Positions 535 through 18,717 of a stretch of DNA of 64,000 nt are shown here, piece after piece; the stretch's first letter is position 1, and every line of letters starts with the position of its first letter. This DNA is from a virus. Both the position numbers and the translations under genes were made by a program. The stretch covers positions 32,001 through 96,000 of the IMG/VR virus record IMGVR_UViG_3300023174_000058; one strand, given 5' to 3'. A model generated the notes under the pieces. The model was not told the origin of the DNA, did not search any database, and worked only from the letters and a program-made list of their open reading frames with translations.

Positions 535-1051
535 TACTTTTACAGCAGAATTAGAATACCTTTGGATAAGATTTATTGATGTTGTATTTCGGCAACCTTG
601 GCATTGGTTTCGCTGTCATTTTATTCCCAAACATAAGTTTCACATTCTTGACCTACGCAGAGCCGGGAATGGTTATGCTTGGGGCTGGTACGATACAGAT
701 AGTCGCATGCTACACGCTTGTTTTCTTCTGCTAAAAGATTATGTTGAACTAGAGAAGCCATTTGAAAATGTTGATTGGGAAGAAAATGAAATTCATAGCA
801 ACGTAGCAAAAGAAATTCGTGAACTTTATCACTGGTGGACAGTAGAACGCCCAGCTTCTCGTAAGCAACTGCATGACGATTGGGAAAGTTGTCCAGAACA
901 TTCTCGTTTTGAAAAAGACGAAAACGGTGACTATAGAATCATCATTCCAGAATCACACAAAATTCTTACGAAACGGCAGTGGGATTACGAGCAAGAAGAC
1001 CAGCACAATCTTGAACGGCTTATAAAGATTAGAGGGTTCTTGTGGACGTAA
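461..1051 (+). CDS. hypothetical Trp-rich phage protein
   Basis: 196-aa ORF (ELYHWW...RLIKIRGFLWT); true start may be downstream. Confidence 0.7.
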   Translation: MKARNQFMMRLESIFTKIKPYLNRDTFTAELEYLWIRFIDVVFRQPWHWFRCHFIPKHKFHILDLRRAGNGYAWGWYDTDSRMLHACFLLLKDYVELEKPFENVDWEENEIHSNVAKEIRELYHWWTVERPASRKQLHDDWESCPEHSRFEKDENGDYRIIIPESHKILTKRQWDYEQEDQHNLERLIKIRGFLWT

Positions 1052-1254
1052 AATATAAATTTGAAATTGGTGATATGGTAGAGTTTACACTAACCGCTTA
1101 TGGTAGTCCCAAAGCATATCATGGAGTTATATCGGAACGGTATGGCGGCGTAGATCACTACTCAGGTAAGATGAGTGTTTATAAAATTTGTTGTCTAGAA
1201 AAACGAATGATAGAATTTACAATAAGCGAGATACTAATTATAGGAAAAGTTTAG
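1042..1254 (+). CDS. GDI-family small SH3/KOW-like protein
   Basis: N-terminal FEIGDMV motif shared with the array. Confidence 0.65.
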   Translation: MDVKYKFEIGDMVEFTLTAYGSPKAYHGVISERYGGVDHYSGKMSVYKICCLEKRMIEFTISEILIIGKV

Positions 1255-1266
1255 AGGAAAAAATGA

Positions 1267-1506
1267 TTGGAGCCAAGATTTGATGTTGGAGATATGATTG
1301 AACTAGTGCCAGAAAATTTTCCAGATGATTGGTATGAAGGCATAGGAATAATACTTCAAATAGAAAATGGAAAATATTCTGTGCATGTATTTAGTTTAGT
1401 CAAAACATCAAGAAAAAGACTAACAACATACGTATTAGGTGAAAAGAGAATTCAATTTTCTGTTGTAGAGGCCGATGAAAATGGCTATTTTAAATTACTA
1501 GCCTAA
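1267..1506 (+). CDS. GDI-family small SH3/KOW-like protein
   Basis: FDVGDMI motif, ends KLLA. Confidence 0.7.
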   Translation: MEPRFDVGDMIELVPENFPDDWYEGIGIILQIENGKYSVHVFSLVKTSRKRLTTYVLGEKRIQFSVVEADENGYFKLLA

Positions 1507-1525
1507 TTATGTTGGAGGTAGTTAA

Positions 1526-2107
1526 ATGGCGCTAATAACAGAGAAACAACTCAAAAGCATTTATCCTAATTGCTATCCAGATAAATTAAAACTATACTGT
1601 GAGGCATTTAATAATATATGGCCGCTGTTTGAAATAACAACTCCAAAACGCATCGCAGCGTTCCTAGGTCAAATTGGTGTTGAAAGCGGTGAATTGAAAT
1701 ACGATAAGGAATTACCAAGCAAATGGAATATGAAAAACCCAAAAGATCCAAGCGAAAAGGTTGGCACATTATACGAAGGGCGTAAGACTCTTGGCAACAT
1801 AATGCCCGGGGATGGTCCTAAGTTTATTGGGCGAGGTATACTTCAATTAACGGGCCGCGCTAACTACGTTGAATACAGCCGTAAATTAAAAATTGATTTA
1901 ACAACCAACCCAGACCTTGCTGCTACACCAGAAGTTAGTGTTAAAATTGCCTGTCAATTCTTTAAGGATCGTAAACTTATAGAAGCAGCAGATAAATGGG
2001 ATCTTGATACGGTAACTGAAAGAGTAAATGGAAAAGTTAAGCTGCATCACGATAAGCGAGTTGCTTACTCTGAGAGAGCTTTAAAAGTTTTAGAAGCGAA
2101 CGTTTAA
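1526..2107 (+). CDS. glycoside hydrolase family 19 (chitinase-like) endolysin
   Basis: AAFLGQIGVESG, GDGPKFIGRGILQLTGRANY, VTERVNG motifs typical of phage GH19 lysins; GGAGG RBS. Confidence 0.9.
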   Translation: MALITEKQLKSIYPNCYPDKLKLYCEAFNNIWPLFEITTPKRIAAFLGQIGVESGELKYDKELPSKWNMKNPKDPSEKVGTLYEGRKTLGNIMPGDGPKFIGRGILQLTGRANYVEYSRKLKIDLTTNPDLAATPEVSVKIACQFFKDRKLIEAADKWDLDTVTERVNGKVKLHHDKRVAYSERALKVLEANV

Positions 2108-2203
2108 TGGCCTGTGCTTCTAAAAACACTACAGGTGTCATGACAAGAGCTTGCACCTGTAGTGTCCTTATTAATCCCGCCTTGCGATAGTATCCTTGGC
2201 CCG

Positions 2204-2240
2204 ACGCCCCGCTGGAAACAGATGGGGCGTTTCTTTTTGT
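2204..2240 (+). terminator. intrinsic terminator after endolysin
   Basis: ACGCCCC...GGGGCGT hairpin followed by TTCTTTTT. Confidence 0.65.
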
Positions 2241-2268
2241 TGACATCCTATGTTACATGTGGCATACT
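2240..2268 (+). promoter_or_regulatory. sigma70-type promoter for the GDI array
   Basis: TTGACA-17 bp-CATACT directly upstream of ATG 2275. Confidence 0.6.
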
Positions 2269-2274
2269 TACCTC

Positions 2275-2529
2275 ATGGATAGCATATCAGATCTTAATCG
2301 CTTTAAGAAGATGAAGCGCGGCGATATTTGGCTTGATAAAGATGGCGATTATATCCTTATCAAAGATATCTACAAAGGTTGGCAAAAAGATAAAAAAACT
2401 ATAAAATGGGTTTGTATTGATGCTATTATTTTAAGCGCTAATTCCCAAGCCTTTATTGAAGCCAGTTATCATTCTGGATACTTTATTCAAGATTATGTGC
2501 CAGATTGTATTGTAGAAAAGGTAGCATGA
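2275..2529 (+). CDS. GDI-family small protein
   Basis: KRGDIW ... KVA; start moved to ATG 2275, just after the promoter. Confidence 0.75.
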   Translation: MDSISDLNRFKKMKRGDIWLDKDGDYILIKDIYKGWQKDKKTIKWVCIDAIILSANSQAFIEASYHSGYFIQDYVPDCIVEKVA

Positions 2530-2735
2530 TGAATTCTAAATTCGACGTTGGCGATATAATTATTAAAGATTTTCCAACAGCTGATCCTAATGATTATCGT
2601 ATTATAGTTAAAAAGTATAAAGGTTCTTTCTTTAATAAACAAAGATGGTTATACGATTATTATCATCTAGGAAATAATTATTTGGATTTTGATACTGTTG
2701 ATTATGTAGACCAAACGTTTAAGAAAGTCGCATAA
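2526..2735 (+). CDS. GDI-family small protein
   Basis: FDVGDII ... KVA; ATGA overlap with previous gene. Confidence 0.8.
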   Translation: MMNSKFDVGDIIIKDFPTADPNDYRIIVKKYKGSFFNKQRWLYDYYHLGNNYLDFDTVDYVDQTFKKVA

Positions 2736-2944
2736 TGGATAAATATTATTATGTAACGTTGCAGGATATATGTTCTGGTGATATTTTATGCAATAGATTT
2801 AATAAGGAAGACAAATATCTTGTACTTGACGATACAATAAACTTAACATTACTTGAGATAAACACAGGTCGTTATATTAATCCGACACCATTAGATTTAA
2901 TTCATAATTTTTTAAAGGTTCTTGACGATGTTTCAAGTGGGTGA
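2735..2944 (+). CDS. GDI-family small protein (divergent)
   Basis: CSGDIL motif; TAATG overlap. Confidence 0.7.
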   Translation: MDKYYYVTLQDICSGDILCNRFNKEDKYLVLDDTINLTLLEINTGRYINPTPLDLIHNFLKVLDDVSSG

Positions 2945-3095
2945 TATAGTAACATATATTGATGACCTTGACGGATTTCATTATCTTGTGACAAAGATAG
3001 ATCGTCATAAAGGAATTGAATTGCTTTGCTTAGAAGACGGTAGAACAACTTGGGATACTTACAAAGCAATGGATTGCTATGAGATTTATGCATGA
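2928..3095 (+). CDS. GDI-family small protein (55 aa, absent from the ORF track)
   Basis: manual translation MFQVGDIVTYIDDLDGFHYLVTKID...YEIYA*; ATGA overlap with next gene. Confidence 0.8.
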   Translation: MFQVGDIVTYIDDLDGFHYLVTKIDRHKGIELLCLEDGRTTWDTYKAMDCYEIYA

Positions 3096-3301
3096 ACCCA
3101 AGACCACAGACCGGCGACATCTGGGAAATCTACGGCCCAGCAGGGTACGGTCGTCCCGTACTCGTTGTTGACATTATATTTGATAAGCAGTATAATAGCC
3201 ATGTTGCTATTATGAAACACTTGACCGGGAATCAAATAGTTTTTGAAGCTCCTATTGTTTCTATTCGTCAAGGAGTCGGCATATGGCAAAAAATAGCATA
3301 G
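3092..3301 (+). CDS. GDI-family small protein
   Basis: PQTGDIW ... KIA. Confidence 0.8.
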   Translation: MNPRPQTGDIWEIYGPAGYGRPVLVVDIIFDKQYNSHVAIMKHLTGNQIVFEAPIVSIRQGVGIWQKIA

Positions 3302-3483
3302 ATAGTCTATATGATATTGGCGATATAGTACTTTATTTTGGAAAACATTATTGCCTAGTTGTTGATATCCTAAACCCACCAGCGAGTAACCTAAGCGTTT
3401 ATAAAATGTTAAATCTTAAAACAGGAGTAAAACAATCTTGGTTTACACCTGACGTTGACAGGAACAGCGAGTTTATCGCATGA
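3283..3483 (+). CDS. GDI-family small protein
   Basis: YDIGDIV ... FIA. Confidence 0.8.
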   Translation: MAKNSIDSLYDIGDIVLYFGKHYCLVVDILNPPASNLSVYKMLNLKTGVKQSWFTPDVDRNSEFIA

Positions 3484-3677
3484 CAAACCGATTTCAAATA
3501 GGTGACATAGTATCCTTTGACCAGCCCGTAGATATTTCTTCAGGTCAATTGAGTTATTTTATAATAAGCGACATAGATTTTACTATACAAAAATATACAG
3601 CTTTACTTATAGGAACAGACGCAACGTATACATATACAATCTATACAATGGATTCAATTTTCTATAAGGTGGCGTAA
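3480..3677 (+). CDS. GDI-family small protein
   Basis: FQIGDIV ... KVA. Confidence 0.8.
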   Translation: MTNRFQIGDIVSFDQPVDISSGQLSYFIISDIDFTIQKYTALLIGTDATYTYTIYTMDSIFYKVA

Positions 3678-3871
3678 TGTTTGCTATTGGTGACATTTGG
3701 ATGTGGACCAAAAATAGTGCCGATCATCCAACCGATCCAGAATATAATTATTTTCTTATTCTTGATGATGAGTGGGGACATAAAGTTCTTTATTTAAAAG
3801 ATGGTAGATTTGCGCATTATGCAACTGGCAATTTACAATACAATAAAGTTCATCTCAAGTTTATCGCATGA
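3677..3871 (+). CDS. GDI-family small protein
   Basis: FAIGDIW ... FIA. Confidence 0.8.
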   Translation: MFAIGDIWMWTKNSADHPTDPEYNYFLILDDEWGHKVLYLKDGRFAHYATGNLQYNKVHLKFIA

Positions 3872-4143
3872 GCAAGAAAAACAAAACGCCTAAATCAATA
3901 GGCCATAAATATAAATTTAGCTATCCTCCCAAGTTTGGTAAGGGAGACATCTTGCGCTATCATGTGCATGACACAGAGGATGCAACCTTTGGTGAAGATC
4001 ACCGGATTATGATCTTAGACATCAGAGAGTATTCGCTAAGTACTGAAAAGATGTTCCAGTACCTTTGTTATTGGCTTGACGAAGGACACTATGTAGAGTA
4101 CAATACTTGGTATGTAGATTTCCACTTTACGAAGGTAGCATGA
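3868..4143 (+). CDS. GDI-family small protein with basic N-terminal extension
   Basis: FGKGDIL ... KVA. Confidence 0.8.
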   Translation: MSKKNKTPKSIGHKYKFSYPPKFGKGDILRYHVHDTEDATFGEDHRIMILDIREYSLSTEKMFQYLCYWLDEGHYVEYNTWYVDFHFTKVA

Positions 4144-4343
4144 TGGACGCACCAGCCAAAGGCGATATTTGGATGGATGATGAAGGCCAGTGTTTTCTTT
4201 ATCTAACAGATCCTGTTTATAGCACGGATGGTGTTTTAAGAGCAACAACGCTATGGCTAAACACGGGGCTTAAAGAAAGAAGTGAATTTAGTTTTAATCC
4301 CGAAACACTTACACTTTATTATTGGTGGACAAAGGTAGCATAA
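4140..4343 (+). CDS. GDI-family small protein
   Basis: PAKGDIW ... KVA; ATGA overlap. Confidence 0.8.
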   Translation: MMDAPAKGDIWMDDEGQCFLYLTDPVYSTDGVLRATTLWLNTGLKERSEFSFNPETLTLYYWWTKVA

Positions 4344-4345
4344 CC

Positions 4346-4537
4346 ATGAAATATGATATTGGTGATATTGTTTATGCATCGTCTATTAATAGGCATGCGT
4401 TAATAACTAACTATCTAAAAGATGAGCACTTCCCAAAAGCTGGTTTTCTAAAGTATCAATTGTTTTGTTTAGAAGCCGGGACATTTCATGATGAAGACAT
4501 CGACAAGGCAGATGATCTTACCGTAAAGGTAGCATGA
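4346..4537 (+). CDS. GDI-family small protein
   Basis: YDIGDIV ... KVA. Confidence 0.8.
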   Translation: MKYDIGDIVYASSINRHALITNYLKDEHFPKAGFLKYQLFCLEAGTFHDEDIDKADDLTVKVA

Positions 4538-4725
4538 TGTACAAAAAAGGCGACATAATCAAGATGGAAGATCCTTATGGCCCTGCTGGATCGACATTTT
4601 ATAAACATTACTTGATCCTTGACACACGCCAGCATTACGTGTATAATGTTCTTTGTGTTGAAACGGGGAATGCAGATATTATGAATAAAAATTATGTTCG
4701 TAAACATGCGGAGTTTGTAGCATGA
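4534..4725 (+). CDS. GDI-family small protein
   Basis: YKKGDII ... FVA. Confidence 0.8.
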   Translation: MMYKKGDIIKMEDPYGPAGSTFYKHYLILDTRQHYVYNVLCVETGNADIMNKNYVRKHAEFVA

Positions 4726-4907
4726 GCAAACCACAGGTTGGGGACATTTGGGAATCTACTATTATTAATAAAAAGTATCTATTAGTAGAGCTTACATTTG
4801 AAGACGAAACTCATAAAACTTTCAGTGTCTTTCCTATTGGACATAACGATTCACTACTATTTGCGAATTTTTATAACGATCTAGCCGGATGGGAGTTTGT
4901 AGCATGA
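4722..4907 (+). CDS. GDI-family small protein
   Basis: PQVGDIW ... FVA. Confidence 0.8.
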   Translation: MSKPQVGDIWESTIINKKYLLVELTFEDETHKTFSVFPIGHNDSLLFANFYNDLAGWEFVA

Positions 4908-5095
4908 AACTCAAATACGAGAAGGGCGACATCGTAGGACTTTATGATAACTCTACAAAACAAATCTTTGAATACCTTCTTATCACAAACTTAGATTATA
5001 AATATTATCATTGCTATAGCTTGACTAACGGATGCGATAGCAAAGAAACTTTTTATGTTCTTGAGAAAGGTTTTTGGTCGGAGAAGGTAGCATGA
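4904..5095 (+). CDS. GDI-family small protein
   Basis: YEKGDIV ... KVA. Confidence 0.8.
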   Translation: MKLKYEKGDIVGLYDNSTKQIFEYLLITNLDYKYYHCYSLTNGCDSKETFYVLEKGFWSEKVA

Positions 5096-5286
5096 GCCGC
5101 AAATATAATAAGGGTGACATAATAAAAGCTGATTATCAAACTGACGGCAATATTTGGTATTTGCTTATTACCGATATACCAAAAGGTGGTTATCACTACC
5201 ACTACATTTGTTTAAATAACGGGCAGCAAGATCTAGCGGTATCAAGAATAATTGATACCTCGCCCCATTATAAATTATATGCCTAG
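5092..5286 (+). CDS. GDI-family small protein
   Basis: YNKGDII ... LYA; close paralog of 5717..5914. Confidence 0.8.
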   Translation: MSRKYNKGDIIKADYQTDGNIWYLLITDIPKGGYHYHYICLNNGQQDLAVSRIIDTSPHYKLYA

Positions 5287-5302
5287 CAGTGAGGGTAGCA
5301 TA

Positions 5303-5491
5303 ATGCGCGTAAAGGTTGGCGACATCATAGGCATCAGGCATTACAGCGGCGCTGGTGTCACAGAGGGCAACTATTATCTTATTACCAAAACCCGTAATCA
5401 TTTCCGCTATGTAGCTATCTTTCTTGGGGATGGCACAACAACCGAACTAGATAAAAGTTATGTTGACAACTATGGGGTAAAGGTGGCATAA
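5303..5491 (+). CDS. GDI-family small protein
   Basis: VKVGDII ... KVA. Confidence 0.8.
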   Translation: MRVKVGDIIGIRHYSGAGVTEGNYYLITKTRNHFRYVAIFLGDGTTTELDKSYVDNYGVKVA

Positions 5492-5724
5492 TGCCAGCAC
5501 AGAAGCACAAGAAGATCAAAAGGGAACCAAAGTATGCGGTGGGCGACATACTCCGCATGGATTTTGGTATACTTGGTCATAAAAAAGAGCGACTTGTTTA
5601 TTATGCAATCATAACCCGGGTGGGTAAGAGCAGCTATGACTACAATTACCTAGACAATTGGGAAGATGAAACTGAAAGCCATGACTTTGTGGACGAGCAC
5701 AAAGGGATAACACTCCATGCCTAA
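5491..5724 (+). CDS. GDI-family small protein
   Basis: YAVGDIL ... LHA. Confidence 0.8.
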   Translation: MPAQKHKKIKREPKYAVGDILRMDFGILGHKKERLVYYAIITRVGKSSYDYNYLDNWEDETESHDFVDEHKGITLHA

Positions 5725-5914
5725 ATATAAACCCAAGTACAAGGCGGGCGATATATTAAAAGCAGATTACGGGGTTGATGAGAAAGTTTGGTATATGCTG
5801 ATTACAAAAGTAGGAGTAAACCTATACGACTATCTTTATTTGAACAACGGGAAGCAAAGTCAAACAGCAATCATGGCGGTTGACCGCTCCCATTATATAA
5901 GGTACTATGCCTAG
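5717..5914 (+). CDS. GDI-family small protein
   Basis: YKAGDIL ... YYA. Confidence 0.8.
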   Translation: MPKYKPKYKAGDILKADYGVDEKVWYMLITKVGVNLYDYLYLNNGKQSQTAIMAVDRSHYIRYYA

Positions 5915-5928
5915 CAGTGGAGGCACTC

Positions 5929-6117
5929 ATGCCTAAGTATAATGTAGGCGACATCATAAATATAAATTATTATCCTGATGGCAGTAGTGGCTTCTATGCA
6001 CTAATAACCAGTATGGATGAGCGTACCTATTATTTCAACTATCTTGATACTTGGGAAGCTGATTGTTGGGACATTAGGATAGCAGATAGTGGATCATCCA
6101 TAACGTTCTATGCATAA
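5929..6117 (+). CDS. GDI-family small protein
   Basis: YNVGDII ... FYA; GGAGG RBS. Confidence 0.8.
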   Translation: MPKYNVGDIININYYPDGSSGFYALITSMDERTYYFNYLDTWEADCWDIRIADSGSSITFYA

Positions 6118-6133
6118 TAGTCGGAGCATCACT

Positions 6134-6322
6134 ATGCCTAAATATGATGTTGGGGACATTATAAAGATTACACCAATCGACGACTCTTCTAGAGCTTGGT
6201 ACGCGCTAATAACCAAAATGGATAGTAGTAGGTATTACTATTTCTATTTTGATAACGGTGATCCTGATTGGGCAGCTTTTGAAGGTCTTGATTATAGTGA
6301 CAGGATAAGCCTATATGCCTAA
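6134..6322 (+). CDS. GDI-family small protein
   Basis: YDVGDII ... LYA. Confidence 0.8.
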   Translation: MPKYDVGDIIKITPIDDSSRAWYALITKMDSSRYYYFYFDNGDPDWAAFEGLDYSDRISLYA

Positions 6323-6357
6323 ACATAATGTATAATTAGTGGCTAATTATTATAGTT

Positions 6358-6606
6358 ATGCCATCAGACAAACCATACGACCATCCAGATATCGGACCAC
6401 CACAATTTGATGTAGGCGACATAATAACATATCACATCATTACTACGGGCGGCGTAACAATAGAACATTACCATTGTCTTGTAATGGATTTATACTTTCA
6501 TCACATACAAGAACATTGGTATTATACCCTATTAAATCTAAATGGCGGCAGAACAGCAGATCATCCAACCCACCATATAGATGGGCATTTTCAACTTTTA
6601 CTTTAA
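6358..6606 (+). CDS. GDI-family small protein
   Basis: FDVGDII motif. Confidence 0.75.
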   Translation: MPSDKPYDHPDIGPPQFDVGDIITYHIITTGGVTIEHYHCLVMDLYFHHIQEHWYYTLLNLNGGRTADHPTHHIDGHFQLLL

Positions 6607-6660
6607 AACTTATCAATTCTTGTATGTTTATGCTACAATGCTAAAGTTGGGGAACATTAG

Positions 6661-7572
6661 ATGGGCATGAAACAGTGTAGCATTTGTAGACAGCTAAGAG
6701 ACATCGATAAGTTTGGATATGATAGTGGCAACCCAGATGGCCGCCATCGTGAGTGCAGGGATTGCAGAAAAATAAAAGATAAACAAATAAGAAACAAGCA
6801 TAATCCAAACAATATAGATCCACGCGATTGGATAGGCAAAGAGGAACCATTCCCAAACACATCGCTTATAATTAAATCTGCCGTTCGTGGTACCCCAATG
6901 GTAAGTGGGCGTAACGGGAAAAGTTATTATAATCAAAACGTACTTGTTGATTGCCTATGCGGCATCAAAGATATATCCCTGCGAACAACCAATATTAAAA
7001 AGGGGCACACTGTATGTTGCTCCTCAACTTGCCAATATTCCGTAAGAAACCAACAGGCCAAGTTAGCCGGTGAACAGTTTATACAAAAAGCAAAACTAGT
7101 TCATGGCGAGAAGTATGACTACTCAAAGGTTGCTTATAAGAATAAGGAAACAAAAATTACAATAGGTTGCCCAAAGCACGGGGAATACCAACAAAACCCA
7201 AGCAGCCATCTTGCAGGTAGAGGTTGCACAAGATGCACAAATAGTATCTCAAGGGGCGAAACTGATTGGCTTGATAGCCTCGGCATCCCAAAAGAACAAA
7301 GAAACATATGGATCTACATAGAGGGATATGGTAAGATAAAGCCAGATGGATACGATCCCCTAACAAATACAATATATGAATACCACGGTGATTACTTCCA
7401 CGGCAATCTAAAGATATACGAACCGGACGAAATAAACCGCAACAATAAAAAAACAATGGCCCAACTGTTCCAAGACACAGTTAAGCGTAGCGCAGCAATA
7501 AGGGATGCCGGTTATAATCTTGTATCAATATGGGAAAGCGATTGGAAGAAGCAGGGGAAGGGGAACCACTAG
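6661..7572 (+). CDS. putative homing endonuclease (Zn-finger/DUF723-like repeats plus Vsr-like nuclease domain)
   Basis: HGEKYDYSKV...CPKHG...HLAGRGC repeat; C-terminal PDGYD-YEYHGDYFHG-GYNLVSIWE. Confidence 0.75.
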   Translation: MGMKQCSICRQLRDIDKFGYDSGNPDGRHRECRDCRKIKDKQIRNKHNPNNIDPRDWIGKEEPFPNTSLIIKSAVRGTPMVSGRNGKSYYNQNVLVDCLCGIKDISLRTTNIKKGHTVCCSSTCQYSVRNQQAKLAGEQFIQKAKLVHGEKYDYSKVAYKNKETKITIGCPKHGEYQQNPSSHLAGRGCTRCTNSISRGETDWLDSLGIPKEQRNIWIYIEGYGKIKPDGYDPLTNTIYEYHGDYFHGNLKIYEPDEINRNNKKTMAQLFQDTVKRSAAIRDAGYNLVSIWESDWKKQGKGNH

Positions 7573-7591
7573 AAGGGGAAGGGGCATAGTA

Positions 7592-7813
7592 ATGCTAGAA
7601 ACAAAGTTCAAAAAGGGCGACATAATAATCCGTACAAGCGAGTGGGGCGACACAATAGCATTGGTAACAGGAGTAGAAGCCGCACAAGATACATTCCCAG
7701 ATGATTTGCCGTATTACCAATTATTGTACCTAACTAGCCCTTACTCAGAAATACCAAATAGCCAGCAACTAGCAACATGGATAGTAGATAAAATATATAA
7801 ACTAAAAAGCTAG
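7592..7813 (+). CDS. GDI-family small protein
   Basis: FKKGDII motif; start at ATG 7592. Confidence 0.7.
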   Translation: MLETKFKKGDIIIRTSEWGDTIALVTGVEAAQDTFPDDLPYYQLLYLTSPYSEIPNSQQLATWIVDKIYKLKS

Positions 7814-8500
7814 TAACCACTACCACCAGTACCAGTAGAAGGACGGCCACCACTAGGGCTACCCCTACTACCTATAGTTCTACCCCTACCCGTACCCTAT
7901 AACTATATCCATAGGTAGAGGTACCCCTAGTAGTACAGGGGAGGGGCGGCATAACAATAAAAAATATAGATAGGGATAACCATACATATAGATAAAAAAA
8001 AGTAAAACCCCTATAGCCCATATGGGAATGGGAAGGGGATAAAAAACATTAGTATAAATTATCTATAGGATCTAAAATATGGGTAGGGTAAAACTCTATA
8101 GACGGGGGATACCTACAGTAATAGAATATGGGATGCCAAATTTCACATACAATACATTGTAATTTATAAACTATATAAAAATATAGCACTTGTGGGGTAC
8201 GGAAATGCCAAGTATGAGGGGGCGGATAAAGCCTTTTCTGCCCCAAATTGGTGCAACTGCCCGAAATCAGGGCACTTTTTAGAAACAGCTATGCACATTT
8301 CCTCCCTATAAAAGGTGGCCCACACATGCTATAATAGACAAAAGGGTGCCATCCCCCCATAAAAAGGAGGGGCGATAATCCTAAATCTATATATTCTAAT
8401 CCTATTACTACAAGGCTAAAACCTCTATCCATCTTATTACAGGGATAGTATACTCCAGCATAATAGTTATGTCAATAGATGTTCCCCCTATAGAATAAAA
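7814..8500. other. long low-complexity non-coding region at the left edge of the GC-rich island
   Basis: no credible ORF; many CCCCTA/TAGGG, TACCAC/TACCAG and C/G homopolymer tracts; lies between convergent gene blocks. Confidence 0.55.
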
Positions 8501-8544
8501 AAAATGGGGTGGGGAGGGGGCTAGGCAGACGCGCAGGGCCTTTT
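8501..8544. repeat. 44-bp dyad element copy 1 (degenerate right half)
   Basis: AAAA-N12-GGGGCTAGGCAG-N12-TTTT. Confidence 0.75.
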
Positions 8545-8559
8545 TTTCAGCCCCCCAAT

Positions 8560-8603
8560 AAAAGGCCGGAAACCCCGGCCTAGCCCCCCGTCGCAGCCCT
8601 TTT
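8560..8603. repeat. 44-bp dyad element copy 2 (degenerate left half)
   Basis: AAAA-N12-CGGCCTAGCCCC-N12-TTTT. Confidence 0.75.
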
Positions 8604-8678
8604 ATTTTCGGCAATAGGAAACCCCCCGCTCCAGATAGGCAACGGGGGGCAGCCCTAAGATAGTGTTAGCCTTGCGAC

Positions 8679-9764
8679 TTACTTCTTGGCCTTCTTGCTA
8701 CCGCCAAGGAGATCGACAACGTGCTGCTTAACGCTCTTGCCGTCCACAGTCAACTTGTGCATTTCAAGGATCAGGCCCATGATAGCGGGCGACTTGCTTG
8801 CATCGGTGTAAAACTTCATGCCCGCCTCGCTGGGCAGACGGAGGAAGAAACGGAGGACGTTATCACGCTCCTCGACCGGCATATCCTTGGAAACACGCCC
8901 GCTGGCAAGAACCTTGTCAACAAGGGCGGTGTATTCACCCAGTTTGTAACCCTTCATGCCGTCGAAACGACCGGAGAGAATATCGTCAACGGAGACAACC
9001 CGCTCCAGATTCTTGATATAGTCACGCGAGGCAAGCGCAGCCTCCATGCCGATATAACCGCTGGCGATGTTGTAATACACATCCAGCCGCGTCTTGAAAT
9101 CGTCGCCTTCAAGGATGCCCGCCTTCGTAACGGTATCCGAAAAACGCTTCCACGAACGGCGGGAGGGATAAATCTTGTTAGGCTCAAACTCCCCCTTGTG
9201 CTCCAGATGCGCGCTCTGATCGTTAATAAAGTCCACAATCAGGGGATGAATGTTACCGGCGCGGCCATAATCCAGCCAATCGCCCACAGACGGTTCAATG
9301 TCGAAAGCGGTCCAGCGGTCCAGTTCGGCCGGGTCCATGTCGTTAACCGCGTACTGGGCACCGTGCGTGCCGCCGTTCACAGCGGCGAAAATAAGCGTCT
9401 CAGGGTGCAGACGATGACCGTTGATCGTACGGGAATCCGTCAACTGGAAAATGCCCTGACGGACCTCAGTGGTGCCGCGATCCACCTCATCCAGAAAGAG
9501 GACAACGGGGCGTTCGCACGCTTCCTTGAACCAATCCGGGGGGTTCCAAGAGGTACGGTTGCCGTCGATGACGGGCAGACCCACAAGATCGCCCTCAGTC
9601 ATCTGCGAGACACGGCGCTCGACAACCGGCAGACCACGCTTCGCCGCAAACTGATAGACCAGTTCGCTCTTGCCGATACCGTGCCGCCCGCGCAGCATGA
9701 TAGGATGCTTGGCGTCCGCGATAAGGGAAACGAACGAGTTAAACGTCTTGAAGTCGATAGCCAT
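8679..9764 (-). CDS. MoxR-like AAA+ ATPase
   Basis: Walker A GRHGIGKS, Walker B LFLDEVDR, MDPAELDRW; start MAIDF at 9764. Confidence 0.88.
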   Translation of the reverse strand: MAIDFKTFNSFVSLIADAKHPIMLRGRHGIGKSELVYQFAAKRGLPVVERRVSQMTEGDLVGLPVIDGNRTSWNPPDWFKEACERPVVLFLDEVDRGTTEVRQGIFQLTDSRTINGHRLHPETLIFAAVNGGTHGAQYAVNDMDPAELDRWTAFDIEPSVGDWLDYGRAGNIHPLIVDFINDQSAHLEHKGEFEPNKIYPSRRSWKRFSDTVTKAGILEGDDFKTRLDVYYNIASGYIGMEAALASRDYIKNLERVVSVDDILSGRFDGMKGYKLGEYTALVDKVLASGRVSKDMPVEERDNVLRFFLRLPSEAGMKFYTDASKSPAIMGLILEMHKLTVDGKSVKQHVVDLLGGSKKAKK

Positions 9765-9938
9765 TACCTTACCCCTTTTTGGTGACGCTCCATACGTCAA
9801 CCGTTTGGAGAGAATAACCTAAGTCGCTGCCCTATGCAACAACTTTTTTTGTTCTATCGGTAGAGTGGGCCTCTCCTGCATCCCGCTCAACCGTGAAAGG
9901 CAATATACAGGAGGCGGGCGATCCCGTCAAGCGCTAAA

Positions 9939-9982
9939 AAAAGGCTAGGCGGCAGGGGCTAGCCCCCCAACCCTGCCCTTTT
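9939..9982. repeat. 44-bp dyad element copy 3
   Basis: perfect core 9955-9966; leftward TTGACG-17-TATATT promoter. Confidence 0.9.
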
Positions 9983-9995
9983 TTGCGGGGCAGGA

Positions 9996-10028
9996 AAAAG
10001 CCCGCCCCCCATTTCGGGAGAGGCGGGC
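9996..10028 (-). terminator. intrinsic terminator after VWA-peptidase gene
   Basis: GCCCGCC stem-loop followed by TTTTT on the minus strand. Confidence 0.6.
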
Positions 10029-10043
10029 AGGGTTCCTGTGCTA

Positions 10044-11255
10044 TTAGTTCAGTTTCTTCTTAATGGGGATGATACGCTCGCCGTTTCGGAAGTATGGATT
10101 TTCCGCACCATTAAGGTCGGTCATCCACATACGGCGGCACTTGGAGGGTTTAGGCGCGGGAGCCATCATATCAGTCAGGACGATATGCCCGTCAAAGGTG
10201 CCAGCCTTGTTGACATACTCAGTCGGGGCGTCGAAATCGGTGCCGCCCATCATAACGCGGGTTGCCTTAGCCCGCTGGCCCTTCTTCCATTCATACACAA
10301 GGGTAGGCTCCACACGGGTATCGAACGGAATGACGGTAAAGGTTGCCAGTTTGGAAAGACTGTTAAGTTCGCCAAAGAACGCTTCAAGCAGTTCATCCGA
10401 AACGCTGCCGCTCTGGTCAATCGAAATGGCGATATGCGCGGAGCGGTTCGACTTCTTGCCGGGATGGATGTAAGGGAAACGCTTGTTGATACGTTTCACC
10501 GTGCTGGACTTGTGCGAACGCTGTGCATTACCAACGAACATACGGAGGACGGCTTTCCAGTCAATCGTACCATTAATGAAACGCAAAATCTCCTTCCGCA
10601 TATCATGCGGCACGCTGCCCCAACCGTTGCCCCCCTTGTTGTTGGCTTCCTCTGCGGCACCCTTCATAATCTCGCGCAGACGCTCCTTTGCCATAGCCTT
10701 GACTTCTTCCGGCACGTTGCCCTCGCCCCAGCCGTCGTGCGAGTCCATGTTACCGCACGAGCCATCGCAGGTGGGACCGTCGCCGCCATCCTCGCCGCTG
10801 GCATGGTTGCCGTCGCACTTACCGCCCTTTTCGTCCTGCTTGTCCTTCTCCAGCCGCTTATAGTAGTCCTCTGCGGTCAAACCATCGGGATAGTTAAACT
10901 TCTCAGGCATAAGGGCAAAATCGGGCAGTTCACCCTTAAGATGGCAGTTAATGGACAGATCGGTAGCAAAGTTCCAACGCTTACTGATCTTCTTGCCATC
11001 GGGCGAACGTCCGAGACAATGATCGAGCATAAGATGGTAAAGTTCGTGCTTTAGAACACCGCGACGATGGTTGTCGGGCAACTTCTCAAAAAACTCCTCG
11101 TTATAGACCATCTCGAAATGACCGTCATCCATAACGCGCACGCCAGCGGTAGGGACCGACTTGGTGGGACGCTTGGAAATATGACGCGACACGGCAGCGA
11201 AAAAAGACTCGTTCAAGAGCAGACGGAACATATCGTTTTCAAGATCGTAAGCCAT
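10044..11255 (-). CDS. DUF2201-type putative metallopeptidase with C-terminal VWA-like domain
   Basis: HELYH zincin motif; MIDAS-like DQSGS, GGTDF, LTD; adjacent to AAA+ ATPase. Confidence 0.85.
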   Translation of the reverse strand: MAYDLENDMFRLLLNESFFAAVSRHISKRPTKSVPTAGVRVMDDGHFEMVYNEEFFEKLPDNHRRGVLKHELYHLMLDHCLGRSPDGKKISKRWNFATDLSINCHLKGELPDFALMPEKFNYPDGLTAEDYYKRLEKDKQDEKGGKCDGNHASGEDGGDGPTCDGSCGNMDSHDGWGEGNVPEEVKAMAKERLREIMKGAAEEANNKGGNGWGSVPHDMRKEILRFINGTIDWKAVLRMFVGNAQRSHKSSTVKRINKRFPYIHPGKKSNRSAHIAISIDQSGSVSDELLEAFFGELNSLSKLATFTVIPFDTRVEPTLVYEWKKGQRAKATRVMMGGTDFDAPTEYVNKAGTFDGHIVLTDMMAPAPKPSKCRRMWMTDLNGAENPYFRNGERIIPIKKKLN

Positions 11256-11328
11256 CGCAGACCTCGCGCTGCTCCATGCAGCGTGGAGAGACTATACAGC
11301 AGACGGGGGGCGGTTGTCAATAGGGGAA

Positions 11329-11372
11329 AAAAGGCGGGGCCGTGGGGGCTAGCCCCTGCCAGATAACCTTTT
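11329..11372. repeat. 44-bp dyad element copy 4
   Basis: perfect core 11345-11356; leftward TTGACA...TATAGT promoter. Confidence 0.9.
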
Positions 11373-11394
11373 TAGGCTACCGGCAGGGGTAGGA

Positions 11395-11997
11395 CTAGGG
11401 CATAATACCCGTTACATAATGATTATAGTTTCCACCCTTTTCGCTTCCAATCAGGAGACGTTGGGGCATGGTGACTTTCTTAACAAGAACTTCTGGGTCA
11501 TAATCAATATCGTGAGAAGGTGCTTCAATCGTAAAGTTAATCCGATTGTAATAATCATGTTCCTTTGACACGCTATTTGGATCCTTTAGGCGCATAAGCA
11601 TGCGGCTAATGGGCACGGAAACAGTAATCTCCTCAGCCCCACCATCAAAAGAAACAAGGCTAGCATGAACCGATCGGGCAATAAAACTTTCATTAACGTA
11701 TCTGGGTTCAAGTTTGACACGCTTTGAATACTTCAGATTGCGCGCTTCAATAAAGCCACAGTTAGCAACCCAATCAAAATCCTTTACCATGCAAAGTTTA
11801 AACTTCTCAGGACTCCAATAATCTTGGACTCGGAGAAGAGCGCCAACGCCCAGACCAACCTTGGCAAACCCTTCAATAAGGGCTTTGCGTTCCTTTGGAG
11901 TATGGGTTAACACAATGTTACGCTGGTCCTTGAAATCGGGGCAATCCGGCTTTCGGTGTCCAATATTCCTACAGTATCCGCAAAGACGCTCAGACAT
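11395..11997 (-). CDS. hypothetical protein with N-terminal CCHC zinc knuckle
   Basis: CGYCRNIGHRKPDC; start MSERL at 11997 downstream of the element-linked promoter. Confidence 0.75.
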   Translation of the reverse strand: MSERLCGYCRNIGHRKPDCPDFKDQRNIVLTHTPKERKALIEGFAKVGLGVGALLRVQDYWSPEKFKLCMVKDFDWVANCGFIEARNLKYSKRVKLEPRYVNESFIARSVHASLVSFDGGAEEITVSVPISRMLMRLKDPNSVSKEHDYYNRINFTIEAPSHDIDYDPEVLVKKVTMPQRLLIGSEKGGNYNHYVTGIMP

Positions 11998-12068
11998 AAT
12001 AGCCTCGCCGCTCTCCATGAGCGTAGGCAGACAATAGCATGGGAACCTCACCGTGTCAAGAGGGACAA

Positions 12069-12112
12069 AAAAGGACCGCTGAAAGGGGCTAGCCCCCTGC
12101 CCAACCGGTTTT
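12069..12112. repeat. 44-bp dyad element copy 5
   Basis: perfect core 12085-12096; leftward TTGACA-17-TATTGT. Confidence 0.9.
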
Positions 12113-12134
12113 ATCCAGCGGGAGGGGACCATCA

Positions 12135-12227
12135 TTAACGCTTCTTGTTTTGGTTACGGGTGCGGCGCTTCTTACTCCCGATCTTTCGCCTACCCTTGCG
12201 CGGACGGTTCTTTGCTGGCCAACCCAT
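12135..12227 (-). CDS. 30-aa Arg/Lys-rich peptide
   Basis: MGWPAKNRPRKGRRKIGSKKRRTRNQNKKR*; strong AAAGGAG RBS. Confidence 0.65.
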   Translation of the reverse strand: MGWPAKNRPRKGRRKIGSKKRRTRNQNKKR

Positions 12228-12277
12228 GACTAACTCCTTTTGTTAGGTCTATTCTTATCGAGCAAACTACTTATAGT

Positions 12278-12886
12278 ATGGAGAACACAATGGAAACTAC
12301 CAAAGTTTGTAATGGATGTAAAGAAGAAAAGTTACTTGTCGAATACAATAAAGACAAAAGCAAGAAAGACGGATACCAAACACGGTGTAGAGCCTGTAAG
12401 CAAGTTTCCGATAATGCTTGGAGGCAGGAGAACAAAGACAGCGTAAATGCTAAGTCGAAAGCATGGCGTAAGGTCAATAGGCAGCGAGCGCAAGAAAACA
12501 TTAAACGCTGGCAGGAGGAGAATCCAGAACGATACCGCGAAATCCAGCGCAAGCATTGGCGTAAGTCTTACGAAAAGAACAAGTTCAAGAAGCTTGTTTC
12601 CGGTGCTATTAAACGTTCACTCAAAGGAATATGGAAGTCAAAAGCCATCTTTGAAAGACTTGGCTATACCGTCGATCAACTCAAAGAGCATCTAGAAAGC
12701 AAGTTCACAGAAGGCATGACTTGGGAGAACCACGGCGAATGGCACATAGATCACATAACGCCACAGTCTTGGCTACCATTCTCCAGTATCGAAGACGAAA
12801 ACTTTATAAAGTGCTGGTCGCTAAGTAACCTTCAGCCTTTATGGGCTAAGGATAATATCAGCAAGGGTAACCGCTATGAAGGATAG
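12278..12886 (+). CDS. HNH homing-type endonuclease
   Basis: N-terminal CxxC..CxxC; WHIDHITP, LQPLWAKDNISKGN; paralog of 23947..24552. Confidence 0.85.
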   Translation: MENTMETTKVCNGCKEEKLLVEYNKDKSKKDGYQTRCRACKQVSDNAWRQENKDSVNAKSKAWRKVNRQRAQENIKRWQEENPERYREIQRKHWRKSYEKNKFKKLVSGAIKRSLKGIWKSKAIFERLGYTVDQLKEHLESKFTEGMTWENHGEWHIDHITPQSWLPFSSIEDENFIKCWSLSNLQPLWAKDNISKGNRYEG

Positions 12887-12907
12887 GAGGCATACCGGAC
12901 CTCCCTT

Positions 12908-13126
12908 CTATGCGATAAACTTCCAACGCCTATTATCTGCTGCAATCTTACTTACCCCCTCTTTTGAGAGAGGGGCATCACCGTGGGTAAGACCAATCAT
13001 CTTAACCGTATCGGCGTCATAGAACTTTGGATCACACTCTATGTATTCTGCGATAAGATAATAAAAGTTCTTACCCAATCCATAGAAGCACCAGATATCG
13101 CCTACCTGTGGAGTACGGCTGCTCAT
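12908..13126 (-). CDS. GDI-family small protein
   Basis: PQVGDIW ... FIA. Confidence 0.8.
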   Translation of the reverse strand: MSSRTPQVGDIWCFYGLGKNFYYLIAEYIECDPKFYDADTVKMIGLTHGDAPLSKEGVSKIAADNRRWKFIA

Positions 13127-13308
13127 GCTACCCACCTGTAGTACTGAAAACAGGAGATATCGGTTTCATCCTCGCCCCAAGCATTATCCAGCCACAGAAT
13201 AAAATAACGATGCCCCCACTTGCTGTACCTACGCACGATGCTAGTCACCATAAAGTGTGCCTGTGAGCCGGGGGAATAGTAGATGTCGCCTACCCGTGGA
13301 TCATACAT
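13123..13308 (-). CDS. GDI-family small protein
   Basis: PRVGDIY ... WVA. Confidence 0.8.
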   Translation of the reverse strand: MYDPRVGDIYYSPGSQAHFMVTSIVRRYSKWGHRYFILWLDNAWGEDETDISCFQYYRWVA

Positions 13309-13529
13309 TAGGCGAGCCTCTCACAATCTTTTAAAACACTAAAATCAAGTGACCACTCCCCATAGCCAGTATCCCAGTAGTTCGACTCCATTACAAGCAC
13401 TTCGTAATGCGGGTAGTGCTTTTCAGGCAGCCGCTTACCTACCAGAAGCACCGCATAGTTTGCAACCCCTTGCATTGGTTGCCGCATCTGGTACCGCAAA
13501 ATGTCGCCCGTGCAGACCGTTGAAATCAT
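13308..13529 (-). CDS. GDI-family small protein
   Basis: CTGDIL ... RLA. Confidence 0.75.
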   Translation of the reverse strand: MISTVCTGDILRYQMRQPMQGVANYAVLLVGKRLPEKHYPHYEVLVMESNYWDTGYGEWSLDFSVLKDCERLA

Positions 13530-13566
13530 GGAAGCACTCTACCAGAGAAGGGAGTGACTGTCAAGG

Positions 13567-13643
13567 TGGCGGTCCCGGCTGGATTTGAACCAGCGTAACT
13601 CTGTTTAGAAGACAGATGCCTAATCCGCTAGACTACGGGACCG
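13567..13643 (-). tRNA. tRNA-Arg(UCU)
   Basis: cloverleaf; anticodon arm TCTGT-CTTCTAA-ACAGA; GGTTCAAATCC T arm; encoded CCA. Confidence 0.92.
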
Positions 13644-13734
13644 TAAACAAGAACAAAAAGGTGCCCCAAGCCAGTTATTCCTTCTTAGGAGCAGGCTGCA
13701 TAGGCGTTGCGCAAACGAGGAACCTATGCATTAT

Positions 13735-13809
13735 TGGTGGGGAAGGTGGGGCTCGAACCCACAACTAACGGCTTAAAAGGCCGCTACTCTACCATTGAGT
13801 TACTTCCCC
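13735..13809 (-). tRNA. tRNA-Lys(UUU)
   Basis: GCGGC-CTTTTAA-GCCGT anticodon arm; GGTTCGAG; CCA. Confidence 0.92.
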
Positions 13810-13816
13810 GAAAAGT

Positions 13817-13902
13817 TGGTGCCCAAGGCCGGACTCGAACCGGCAAGCCTGTTACGGCGGAAGATTTTAAGTCTTCTGTGTATACCATTTCACCACTTGG
13901 GC
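13817..13902 (-). tRNA. tRNA-Leu(UAA)
   Basis: GAAGA-CTTAAAA-TCTTC; long variable arm; CCA. Confidence 0.92.
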
Positions 13903-13905
13903 AAG

Positions 13906-13996
13906 TGGTCGGCCCGCTAGGAGTCGAACCTAGTCTAGGCGGTCATCTACCGCAAAACGATTATAAGTCGTTCTCGCATTGCCGATGCACGGGCCG
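13906..13996 (-). tRNA. atypical tRNA with UAU anticodon (Ile-AUA reading) and long variable arm
   Basis: 7-bp acceptor CGGCCCG/CGGGCCG, AACGA-CTTATAA-TCGTT, GCGGT/ACCGC variable arm, GGTTCGACT T loop, ACCA end. Confidence 0.75.
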
Positions 13997-14002
13997 ATTA
14001 TT

Positions 14003-14332
14003 CTATTTTTCTAGTTCATCGTGAAGTTCACTATGGCAATTATGACAGACCATAATGCACTTGTCAAGTTCTTCTTTTATCTTCTCCCACTTGCGAGCAT
14101 GGGAACCAGAGATCCCAAAGTCTTTTTGGGAAGGGTCGAGATGGTGAAAGGCTAGGGCACGCTTACTCTTGCAGTACCCGCACCTCTCACATTTCCCGCC
14201 TTTATATTCGACACACCGATCTTTCAAGTCGTGTCGCTTACGGTTTGACATACAGGAGTTACAGACAGTCCTAGTATGCCCTTTCTTTCTATCATAGTCA
14301 AACGATCTTTTACACTCTTTACACTCAGTCAT
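14003..14332 (-). CDS. HNH endonuclease
   Basis: CERCGY...LAFHHLDP...CIMVCHNCHSELH; upstream of the tRNA cluster. Confidence 0.85.
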   Translation of the reverse strand: MTECKECKRSFDYDRKKGHTRTVCNSCMSNRKRHDLKDRCVEYKGGKCERCGYCKSKRALAFHHLDPSQKDFGISGSHARKWEKIKEELDKCIMVCHNCHSELHDELEK

Positions 14333-14446
14333 GTGGGAGCCTCCTATGCTCTAACTAGTGCGAGAGCGGAGATTGTTCCCACATTTCTAACCGCTAGGCT
14401 ACAGGACCATCGAACAAAAACATCTTACCACATCACCGGCAGGACT

Positions 14447-14602
14447 TCAAGAAGTTTCTTTTGAGGCAATAAAGTCACGCAGTACCTTACGCAGATCCAT
14501 CAGCCGATCCTCGTCGCTCTCGTCAAAGCGCCCAGTAAACAGCACCTCGTTGATTGCTTCGAGCAGTACGATGGCAAGATCCCTGTCTACTTCGATGTTC
14601 AT
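14447..14602 (-). CDS. small acidic hypothetical protein
   Basis: MNIEVDRDL...; preceded by TTGACA-17-TAGGAT. Confidence 0.55.
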   Translation of the reverse strand: MNIEVDRDLAIVLLEAINEVLFTGRFDESDEDRLMDLRKVLRDFIASKETS

Positions 14603-14634
14603 GGAGAGCATCCTATCACTTGTGCGAGGGGTTG

Positions 14635-14748
14635 TCAAGCGGGCCGTGGAGTCGAACCACGCAGCCCCAACCCTCTAACAGTTAGAGGTTATGTTAGCGG
14701 ATGGAACTCAGTCCGCCAGTTACCAAGTACCCCGTACCGCCCGCTTGA
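14635..14748 (-). ncRNA. tRNA-like structured RNA candidate
   Basis: 10-bp terminal stem TCAAGCGGGC/GCCCGCTTGA, T arm CGTGG-TTCGACT-CCACG, three further hairpins; starts at the predicted TSS of a sigma70 promoter. Confidence 0.6.
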
Positions 14749-14791
14749 TGAACGTATAGTACCCCGGATCGTGTCACTTGTCAACGAACAT

Positions 14792-14835
14792 AAAAGGAGG
14801 TAGGAGAAGGGCTAGCCCCCCTGCCCCCCGCTTTT
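14792..14835. repeat. 44-bp dyad element copy 6
   Basis: AGGGCTAGCCCC core 14808-14819; leftward TTGACA-17-TACTAT. Confidence 0.9.
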
Positions 14836-14859
14836 ATTGCGGGGGTGGGGTTGGTCGTG

Positions 14860-15609: not shown

Positions 15610-15679
15610 CGTTGCCTCCTTCGCTCTCCATGAGCGTATGCGGACTATATATGGTCCCCTGCATTGTGTCAAGCGACAA

Positions 15680-15723: not shown

Positions 15724-15750
15724 ATCAATGCTTGTAAAGACACCAGCGGT

Positions 15751-18716: not shown

Positions 18717-18717
18717 C

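Follow-up and report, generated by a model that had tools for sequence, protein, structure and literature searches.

The 64,000-nucleotide window analysed here, bases 32001-96000 of a single 162,187-bp virus record (IMGVR_UViG_3300023174_000058), carries a real, lineage-specific multigene family of soluble single-domain proteins. The family has 32 robust and four probable members, which make up about one gene in seven (about 15%) of the roughly 240 genes of this T4-type phage. Models of two divergent members predict a small beta-barrel of the SH3/Tudor type, in which a conserved scaffold carries loops of variable length. Members are encoded in tandem arrays with overlapping gene junctions and early-type promoter signals, and orthologous copies are under purifying selection. 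The protein family is undescribed, and its members may be early binders of host or defence proteins.

A multigene family of small proteins

Membership was established with a seed hidden Markov model (HMM) built from 18 plus-strand copies and then iterated, using 5x shuffled open reading frames (ORFs) as a control. The seed HMM recovers the non-seed copies, the GC-rich ones on the minus strand included, at E 1.6e-10 to 1.2e-3; the best shuffled ORF reaches 0.6 against it, and shuffles over both search rounds give E ≥ 0.12. Iteration yields 32 robust members, all with E ≤ 2.8e-11, of which 21 lie at 2257-7813 and two at 35177-35619 on the plus strand, and two at 12908-13308 and seven at 16086-17640 on the minus strand. 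Four further ORFs are borderline (HMM E 0.006-0.05; hhalign 70, 28, 50 and 13%, compared with ≤ 2% in six control ORFs); GD(I/M) and hydrophobic-strand motifs are visible by eye in all four. No family copy was found by HMM outside 1042-35619 of the window across the 162,187-bp genome.

A first-pass annotation of the window, made by reading its sequence, had counted 24 + 10 + 2 = 36 copies. The ORFs that it named are present at their coordinates, and HMM and hhalign reproduce the count as 32 robust and four probable members. Three ORFs that it listed as related domains (14860-15672, 18474-18716 and 22785-22931) do no better than the controls (HMM E about 4; hhalign 2.3, 5.9 and 0.5%) and are not members. 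Read by eye, all three show stretches of the KOW/CarD-like form V-G-x-x-V...G-x-G; they could represent small beta-barrels of another kind.

Members are about 55-90 residues long, or about 60-75 when likely starts are used. Their signature was derived from 208 non-redundant sequences from the window, related loci and metagenomic representatives. It opens with (P/Y/F)-x-(V/I)-G98-D97-I95-(W44/I25/L/V), numbers giving the percentage of the 208 sequences, and continues with (H/Y)-(Y/F)-L84-(I/V)-(L/T/V)-(D/E) and a turn block Y62-x-x-L-x-L89-(E/D/N)-(T/D/N)-G81; towards the C-terminus, a D precedes W-x-(K/F/L)-(V/I)-Ala as the last residues. By these frequencies the motif description in the first-pass annotation is accurate. 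The G-D-I codons vary synonymously (GGC/GGT/GGG, GAC/GAT), so G-D-I is a protein-level trait. Inserted stretches of 0-13 residues follow profile positions 23 and 34, and stretches of 0-7 residues follow position 63. Aromatic residues and His are abundant in the proteins (Tyr 7.9% vs 4.3% and Trp 2.8% vs 1.0% in other genes; His is also high), and most copies are acidic or neutral, with a median isoelectric point of 5.6 and a mean net charge of -1.9.

Predicted fold

AlphaFold2 predicts five strands for the member at 5074-5286 from a 32-sequence alignment, with a predicted local distance difference test score (pLDDT) of 91.5 and a predicted template modelling score of 0.76. Strands E16-20, E27-34, E41-46 and E52-56 are followed by helix H57-62 and strand E66-68. 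The model of a GC-rich 'GDIW' member (16086-16280; pLDDT 84.1) has five strands in the same order, and the last ten residues are ordered in both models (mean pLDDT 96 and 93). Foldseek neighbours comprise Tudor, PWWP, KOW and TraI-TSA domains, with a best E of 0.036 and template modelling scores of up to 0.70. An exhaustive VIA-align search with both models returns the TraI TSA domain (Z 7.9/6.2), the Tudor domain of RDM15 (6.2/6.5) and the UvrD C-terminal domain (6.3/5.9), with CarD (6.1/5.2), KOW and EF-P domain I among further top matches. As modelled, both subfamilies fold as an SH3/Tudor-like five-stranded small beta-barrel; the Z values of the models denote this common small-barrel fold and no more. 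The fold class SH3/KOW/Tudor-like, proposed earlier from the motifs, is thus supported by two models whose best neighbours are of the Tudor, SH3 and KOW type.

In the loop nomenclature of small beta-barrels (RT-like, n-Src-like and distal; survey, doi 10.1101/140376), the length-variable regions of the family are the RT-like (beta1-beta2) and n-Src-like (beta2-beta3) loops, and the conserved L-x-x-G is the distal turn. The core strands are kept while the two loops vary by 0-13 residues, which bears out the earlier description of a conserved scaffold with variable loops. G-D-I opens strand 1, and (K/F)-(V/I)-Ala stands directly after strand 5. Because strand 1 pairs with strand 5 in the small-barrel fold, barrel closure would explain why both ends are conserved together, as the secondary structure of the models suggests.

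Searches for described relatives

Scans of all 32 robust members against Pfam, PHROGs and NCBIfam gave only scattered sub-threshold matches. Among these, phrog_1945 matches five members (best E 0.07); searched in the genome, it gave one match, at E 0.009, that contains stops. A profile of all 32 members reached a best E of 0.62 against PDB sequences, and none of the 32 matches Pfam Tudor, KOW or CarD_TRCF even at E ≤ 5. No match was obtained by tblastn with the two members tried against 50,697 deposited phage records. In the ESM Atlas, the hits were limited to viral clusters without a name and to weak DUF leads, and the latter gained no support from the Pfam scan. Searches of the literature turned up no account of the family.

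Two candidate relatives were rejected. The YccV/HspQ-like hemimethylated-DNA-binding domain (PF08755, cut-off 22.8 bits) matches one member of 32 (35410-35619), at 14.1 bits and E 0.061 and over the first 26 profile positions only. MazF/PemK toxins were considered for what we took to be a resemblance to the GD(I/V)(W/Y) N-terminus; no member matches PemK_toxin, and members have about 55-90 residues compared with about 110. MazF does not appear in the lists of the 50 top-ranked structural neighbours of the two models, an absence that does not in itself speak against a shared fold.

Although Pfam, PHROGs, NCBIfam and PDB sequences all lack the family, about 214 metagenomic clusters share it. These were found at E ≤ 1e-3 by a profile search of 1.84 billion representatives; nearly all have 55-100 residues, and no name is attached to any of them. 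Of the best 150, 146 are small clusters, and 117 of these 146 are less than 50% identical to any window member.

Gene junctions and the terminal alanine

At 46 overlapping junctions (ATGA or TAATG), the consensus reads AAGGT(A/G)GCA-TGA or AAGGT(A/G)GCA-TAATG, and the Lys-Val codons supply a Shine-Dalgarno (SD)-like AAGG/GGTG 4-9 nt ahead of the next ATG. The locus is a clear case of dual coding, in which the last codons of one gene double as the ribosome-binding site and start of the next. Judging from these junctions, translational coupling accounts for at least part of the Lys-Val preference.

One could read the conserved C-terminus as nothing but such a nucleotide junction, an SD sequence plus an overlapping start that couples neighbouring genes. 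'KVA' is concentrated at overlapping junctions with SD-like AAGG/GGTG, and gap junctions differ, being mostly (L/F/Y)(Y/H)A instead of Lys-Val-Ala. However, Ala is present at 17 of 24 gap (non-overlapping) junctions, mainly as GCC and also as GCA or GCT, and is kept in the members at 12908-13135 and 16935-17210, which have no downstream gene on their strand. It ends 88% of members and 120 of 146 metagenomic representatives, but just 8 of 204 (4%) other genes of the genome. Since Ala is kept without overlap, is rare in other genes and belongs to the confidently ordered last residues of both models, it is selected at the protein level. The junction-only explanation is quite improbable and holds at most for Lys-Val.

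Selection on the protein could also reflect a degradation tag of the ssrA or tail-specific-protease type, which would make the members short-lived early proteins, possibly with help from a phage ClpP. The ssrA tag ends in LAA, and ClpXP and Tsp recognise non-polar C-termini. The terminal Ala is family-specific and is preceded by V, I, L or Y, and a phage gene for a ClpP homolog lies at 32622-33224 (Pfam CLP_protease, 95 bits). Against this, the penultimate residue is Val, Ile, Tyr or Leu rather than Ala, and the tail ends right after strand 5, where at pLDDT 96 and 93 it looks packed rather than exposed. We regard a degron as very improbable.

Selection and turnover of the arrays

The first-pass annotation had placed the family under diversifying selection. 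The orthologs do not support this as stated: across 21 non-identical pairs, from ortholog sets that are small, the pooled ratio of nonsynonymous to synonymous substitution rates (dN/dS) is 0.26, and 19 of the 21 pairs lie at 0.04-0.42, which indicates purifying selection. The orthologs of 12908-13135 and 13123-13308 in the related locus L004 give 0.16 and 0.11, and the two closest pairs (3283-3483 and 3480-3677, compared with L024) give about 1.5 with few substitutions. Purifying selection on orthologs makes hypervariable targets of the diversity-generating-retroelement type unlikely.

A tree of 67 members leaves 32 of its 64 forks open; given this poor resolution, it was used only for well-supported ortholog pairs. 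Several window paralogs have their own orthologs elsewhere: the member starting at 4534 pairs with L005:2474, 17416 with L006:3681 and 5252 with L006:13106. Because many paralogs have such orthologs, much of the diversification is old, each copy being maintained.

Array content changes rapidly between loci. In L001, three additional members separate the orthologs of 5074-5286 and 5252-5491, and one more lies beyond. In L004, two additional members stand between the counterparts of 13123-13308 and 12908-13135, and this syntenic locus has no nucleotide match to the borderline ORF at 13308-13529. In the tree, the 11-member array of L005 contains only one ortholog-like relative of a window member (2474, with 4534). 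Across window 6358-17210, four members are identical in L204, with zero synonymous differences; the 16086-17210 cassette is diverged (dS, the synonymous component, 0.2-0.9) and holds a different member. That L204 is identical at four members but diverged in one cassette points to cassette exchange, which looks like exchange between co-circulating phages and, by this comparison, a recent one. The locus displays such cassette-level exchange between otherwise identical phage genomes. Taken together, these sequence comparisons show that diversity arises mainly through duplication, divergence and the gain, loss and exchange of cassettes.

Change within a single loop is seen once. The member at 3480-3677 is about 96% identical overall to its L024 counterpart, and nearly all changes, together with a 3-nt indel, fall within the RT-like loop (window 3501-3560 vs L024:354-420; FDQPV-DISSGQLS vs LTISLDDISSGQSL). 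A search of the sequences compared revealed no donor for this loop. This single case fits loop-directed diversification without establishing it.

Phage genome and distribution of the family

The record, with an estimated completeness of 89%, derives from a T4-type phage known from freshwater metagenomes; the assignment is based on a Gp23 major capsid family match (PF07068, 205.9 bits) at 150155-151750 of the full record (G000). No near relative emerged from the 50,697 deposited phage records, whether they were searched with DNA or by tblastn. The family genes are located in the non-structural, hyperplastic part of this genome, which is a mosaic in base composition: a block of about 17 kb (window 8000-25000) has 48-56% G+C and the rest of the genome 25-40%. 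The dyad GGGGCTAGCCCC cuts through the GC-rich block in 17 copies, compared with 0.7 expected by chance. An assembly chimera as the origin of the GC-rich copies was rejected because the related contigs L204 and L206, which are syntenic with the window, carry the same GC-rich/AT-rich mosaic, with family members in both parts.

Tandem arrays are present in every contig examined. L001 has 11 members within 2.7 kb, L005 has 11 HMM-detected members upstream of a CobS gene that is 74% identical at the DNA level, and L006 and its 41-kb record have 12-14. Phages whose CobS is ≤ 54% identical show 0-2 weak family matches, so the expansion is limited to a narrow lineage whose known representatives all come from metagenomes. 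Scanning IMG/VR with a single protein yielded one weak locus that held no members, and a scan for the junction pattern gave mostly chance matches, with members in 1 of 58 viral and 4 of 119 metagenome loci.

Expression signals

Sites of the sigma70 type were defined as consensus matches (≥ 10/12) to TTGACA-17-TATAAT. Seven occur on the plus strand at 1000-8000, compared with 2.2 ± 1.5 in shuffles, and one on the minus strand; the plus strand of the whole genome has four perfect sites, including the two inside the array (Table 1). SD-like tetramers precede 21 of 36 likely starts, against a background of 11%. The embedded sigma70-type sites and the ATGA/TAATG overlaps make early transcription by host RNA polymerase (RNAP) with coupled polycistronic translation most likely, and from these signals we infer that expression is early, host-polymerase-driven and polycistronic. 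The octamer CTATTTAT is strongly strand-biased, with 24 plus-strand copies and one minus-strand copy in the whole genome and none inside the family arrays; it may be a phage-specific promoter element of the middle or late class.

Proposed function

We propose that the members are binder proteins made early, with a role in host takeover or counter-defence; the first-pass annotation had suggested a binder library with a possible anti-defence role. This is plausible in view of the fold class, the genomic position, the early-type signals and the conservation pattern, and we put it forward tentatively. The family grows by tandem duplication and divergence, whole members are gained, lost or swapped between co-circulating phages, and established copies are then held by purifying selection. 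Host RNA polymerase would transcribe the head-to-tail arrays early, with coupled translation of the polycistrons. Each paralog would have a host or defence protein of its own as partner, bound stoichiometrically by the variable loop surface in the service of takeover or counter-defence. The full version of this scheme, in which some 30 stand-alone SH3/Tudor-like binders are each tuned to a different target and reshuffled by cassette exchange and loop replacement, is possible but doubtful.

Several observations weigh against a binder function. No sequence homology ties any member to a target or phenotype. The structural matches, at Z < 8 and Foldseek E ≥ 0.036, are of middling strength and speak for a common fold only, and variable loops, expected in any diverged small barrel, are no proof of a binding surface. 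Purifying selection on orthologs counts against an ongoing arms race at most copies. The promoter count rests on consensus matches, and 6 of 300 shuffles reach seven.

The structural neighbours also suggest regulators directed at RNAP or nucleic acid, which would redirect transcription or translation early in infection in the manner of Tudor, KOW or CarD domains. Among the bacterial neighbours are the UvrD/PcrA C-terminal Tudor domain on the RNAP beta lobe (7egs, Z 6.3/5.9), CarD (6.1/5.2), KOW domains of Spt5/DSIF and EF-P domain I, and Lys/Arg-rich N-terminal tails occur in 3868-4143, 5491-5724 and 16935-17210 as well as in P0041 and P0022. However, many unrelated barrels attain Z scores as high, none of the 32 members is matched by a KOW, CarD or Tudor family of Pfam, and by the pI and charge given above most copies are neutral or acidic. 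Thirty-odd paralogs are also hard to square with a single conserved target such as RNAP. On balance we consider such a regulatory role rather unlikely. Still less probable, in our view, is a reading of the arrays as cargo, for the most part dispensable, that mobile promoter cassettes carry along and whose ORFs persist through spread by recombination. Membership does vary even among near-identical phages, and the members of the GC-rich block sit in cassettes bounded by the GGGGCTAGCCCC dyad, resembling in this respect the promoter-early stem-loop (PeSL) cassettes with non-essential ORFans as presented in the available text of PMC2839356. The dN/dS of 0.04-0.42 in 19 ortholog pairs speaks against cargo, as do the paralogs conserved across otherwise different arrays (4534 with L005:2474; 17416 with L006:3681) and the AT-rich 24-gene array, which lacks the dyad.

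If the members are indeed target-specific binders, the arrays would form a compact catalogue of what the lineage must neutralise in its freshwater host, and a natural library of diversified 60-residue minimal binding scaffolds.

Coordinates and neighbouring genes

Table 1 Family members, cassettes and perfect promoter-like sites in the window
Feature	Position	Strand	Details
Borderline member	1042-1254	+	70 aa, FEIGDMV..., C-term IIGKV; HMM E 0.0058; hhalign 70%
Borderline member	1267-1506	+	79 aa, FDVGDMI..., C-term KLLA; HMM E 0.033; hhalign 28%
Two robust members	2257-2529, 2505-2735	+	Iterated HMM E 5e-12, 3e-19
Borderline member	2735-2944	+	SGDIL, KYLVLDD, LTLLEINTG; C-terminus runs beyond ...FLKV; HMM E 0.053; hhalign 50%
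Robust run of 17, whole	2922-6322	+	HMM E 6e-20 to 3e-11; junctions mostly ATGA or TAATG overlaps
Robust run of 17, first part	2922-3095, 3092-3301, 3283-3483, 3480-3677, 3677-3871, 3868-4143, 4107-4343, 4322-4537, 4534-4725	+	Contiguous
Robust run of 17, second part	4722-4907, 4889-5095, 5074-5286, 5252-5491, 5491-5724, 5717-5914, 5917-6117, 6110-6322	+	Contiguous
Perfect sigma70-type site inside array	3168-3196	+	12/12 match, TTGACA-17-TATAAT
Perfect sigma70-type site inside array	4619-4647	+	12/12 match
Robust member	6358-6606	+	82 aa, C-term QLLL; HMM E 1.2e-18; ortholog cluster (P0002) C-term QLFA
Robust member	7505-7813	+	Downstream of DUF723/HNH-like endonuclease gene; likely start internal ATG (MLETKFKKGDII); HMM E 9.7e-14
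Two robust members, GC-rich block	12908-13135, 13123-13308	-	HMM E 1e-15, 5e-12
Borderline member	13308-13529	-	TGDIL..., C-term ERLA, in tandem with the 12908-13308 pair; HMM E 0.019; hhalign 13%
Four robust members	16086-16295, 16277-16528, 16438-16662, 16644-16886	-	HMM E 1e-16 to 5e-16
Cassette of members 16086-16886 and gene 15751-16104	Flanked by dyads 15696 and 16907	-	Defined by dyad positions
Three robust members	16935-17210, 17207-17476, 17416-17640	-	HMM E 3e-17, 3e-15, 1e-19; cassette between dyads 16907 and 17700
Two robust members	35177-35410, 35410-35619	+	HMM E 2e-14, 1e-15; second overlaps SpoU methylase gene start by TAATG

The main array is split by a DUF723/HNH-like endonuclease gene at 6661-7572. 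Two further ORFs that look like homing-endonuclease genes (12278-12886 and 23947-24552) adjoin member cassettes; they are paralogs of about 200 residues with a Cys-rich N-terminus and a C-terminal H-I-D-H...N-L-Q-P-L...N-R-Y-E-G block. Eight tRNA genes occur in two groups (13567-13996 and 31330-34926), and the tRNA-Ile(TAT) call at 13906-13996 has 91 nt, an unusual length for that tRNA type. In the region 35619-38757, a SpoU-type RNA methylase gene (SpoU Pfam match), whose start overlaps the stop of the member at 35410-35619, is found with a 424-residue ORF that is adenylosuccinate lyase-like by eye only and a gene for a 437-residue PhoH-like ATPase, whose best tblastn matches in deposited phages are annotated PhoH/PhoH2.

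A 13-kb island of 25-33% G+C at 40400-53519 carries genes for sugar-nucleotide and glycan enzymes according to Pfam. Among them are GDP-mannose 4,6-dehydratase, a second dehydratase/epimerase, dTDP-4-dehydrorhamnose 3,5-epimerase, a DegT-type aminotransferase, glycosyltransferases, a methyltransferase, a hexapeptide acyltransferase and a cytidylyltransferase.

Comparison with known systems

The predicted structures resemble SH3-like small barrels such as the UvrD/PcrA C-terminal Tudor, CarD N-terminal and TraI TSA domains. They share the five-stranded barrel of about 55-65 residues, the RT-like, n-Src-like and tight distal loops, and the short helix before strand 5. In contrast to these domains of larger proteins, the family consists of stand-alone proteins without a sequence match to any Pfam, NCBIfam or PDB family. 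It also has its own signature, with G-D-I at the start and Ala last, and 32-36 copies in one genome.

Hyperplastic regions of T4-type genomes hold PeSL cassettes (Arbiol et al. 2010, PMC2839356). As far as the available text of that study describes them, these cassettes and the arrays in the window are alike in their T4-type genome with a gp23-type capsid gene, in small, non-essential-looking ORFs behind strong sigma70-like promoters, and in the concentration of insertions, deletions and replacements (here between L001, L004, L204 or L005 and the window). Members in the GC-rich block lie between conserved dyads (15696, 16907 and 17700). However, PeSL regions hold mostly genes without known homologs, and the available text of PMC2839356 mentions no large paralog family, whereas here one family fills the arrays. 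The AT-rich array of 24 genes also differs from PeSL cassettes, so far as that text portrays them, as it has no dyad or stem-loop between its genes and instead shows overlapping stop/start junctions and embedded sigma70-like sites.

Looser analogies can be drawn with other viruses. The host-takeover module of Bacillus phage SPO1 has many small early genes with their own promoters, as the arrays in the window probably do, but its genes are mostly unrelated to one another. To our knowledge, it is unusual for a bacteriophage to carry a paralog family that takes up so large a share of its genes, here about 15% in a 162-kb genome. Tandem, lineage-specific paralog expansions that differ between strains are found in the multigene families of African swine fever virus and the ankyrin families of poxviruses, which use other folds and hosts. 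A relationship in sequence to the SPO1 module or to these families was neither expected nor observed. If the arrays are a repertoire of binders, they would be the prokaryotic-virus counterpart of these strain-variable multigene families in large eukaryotic DNA viruses.

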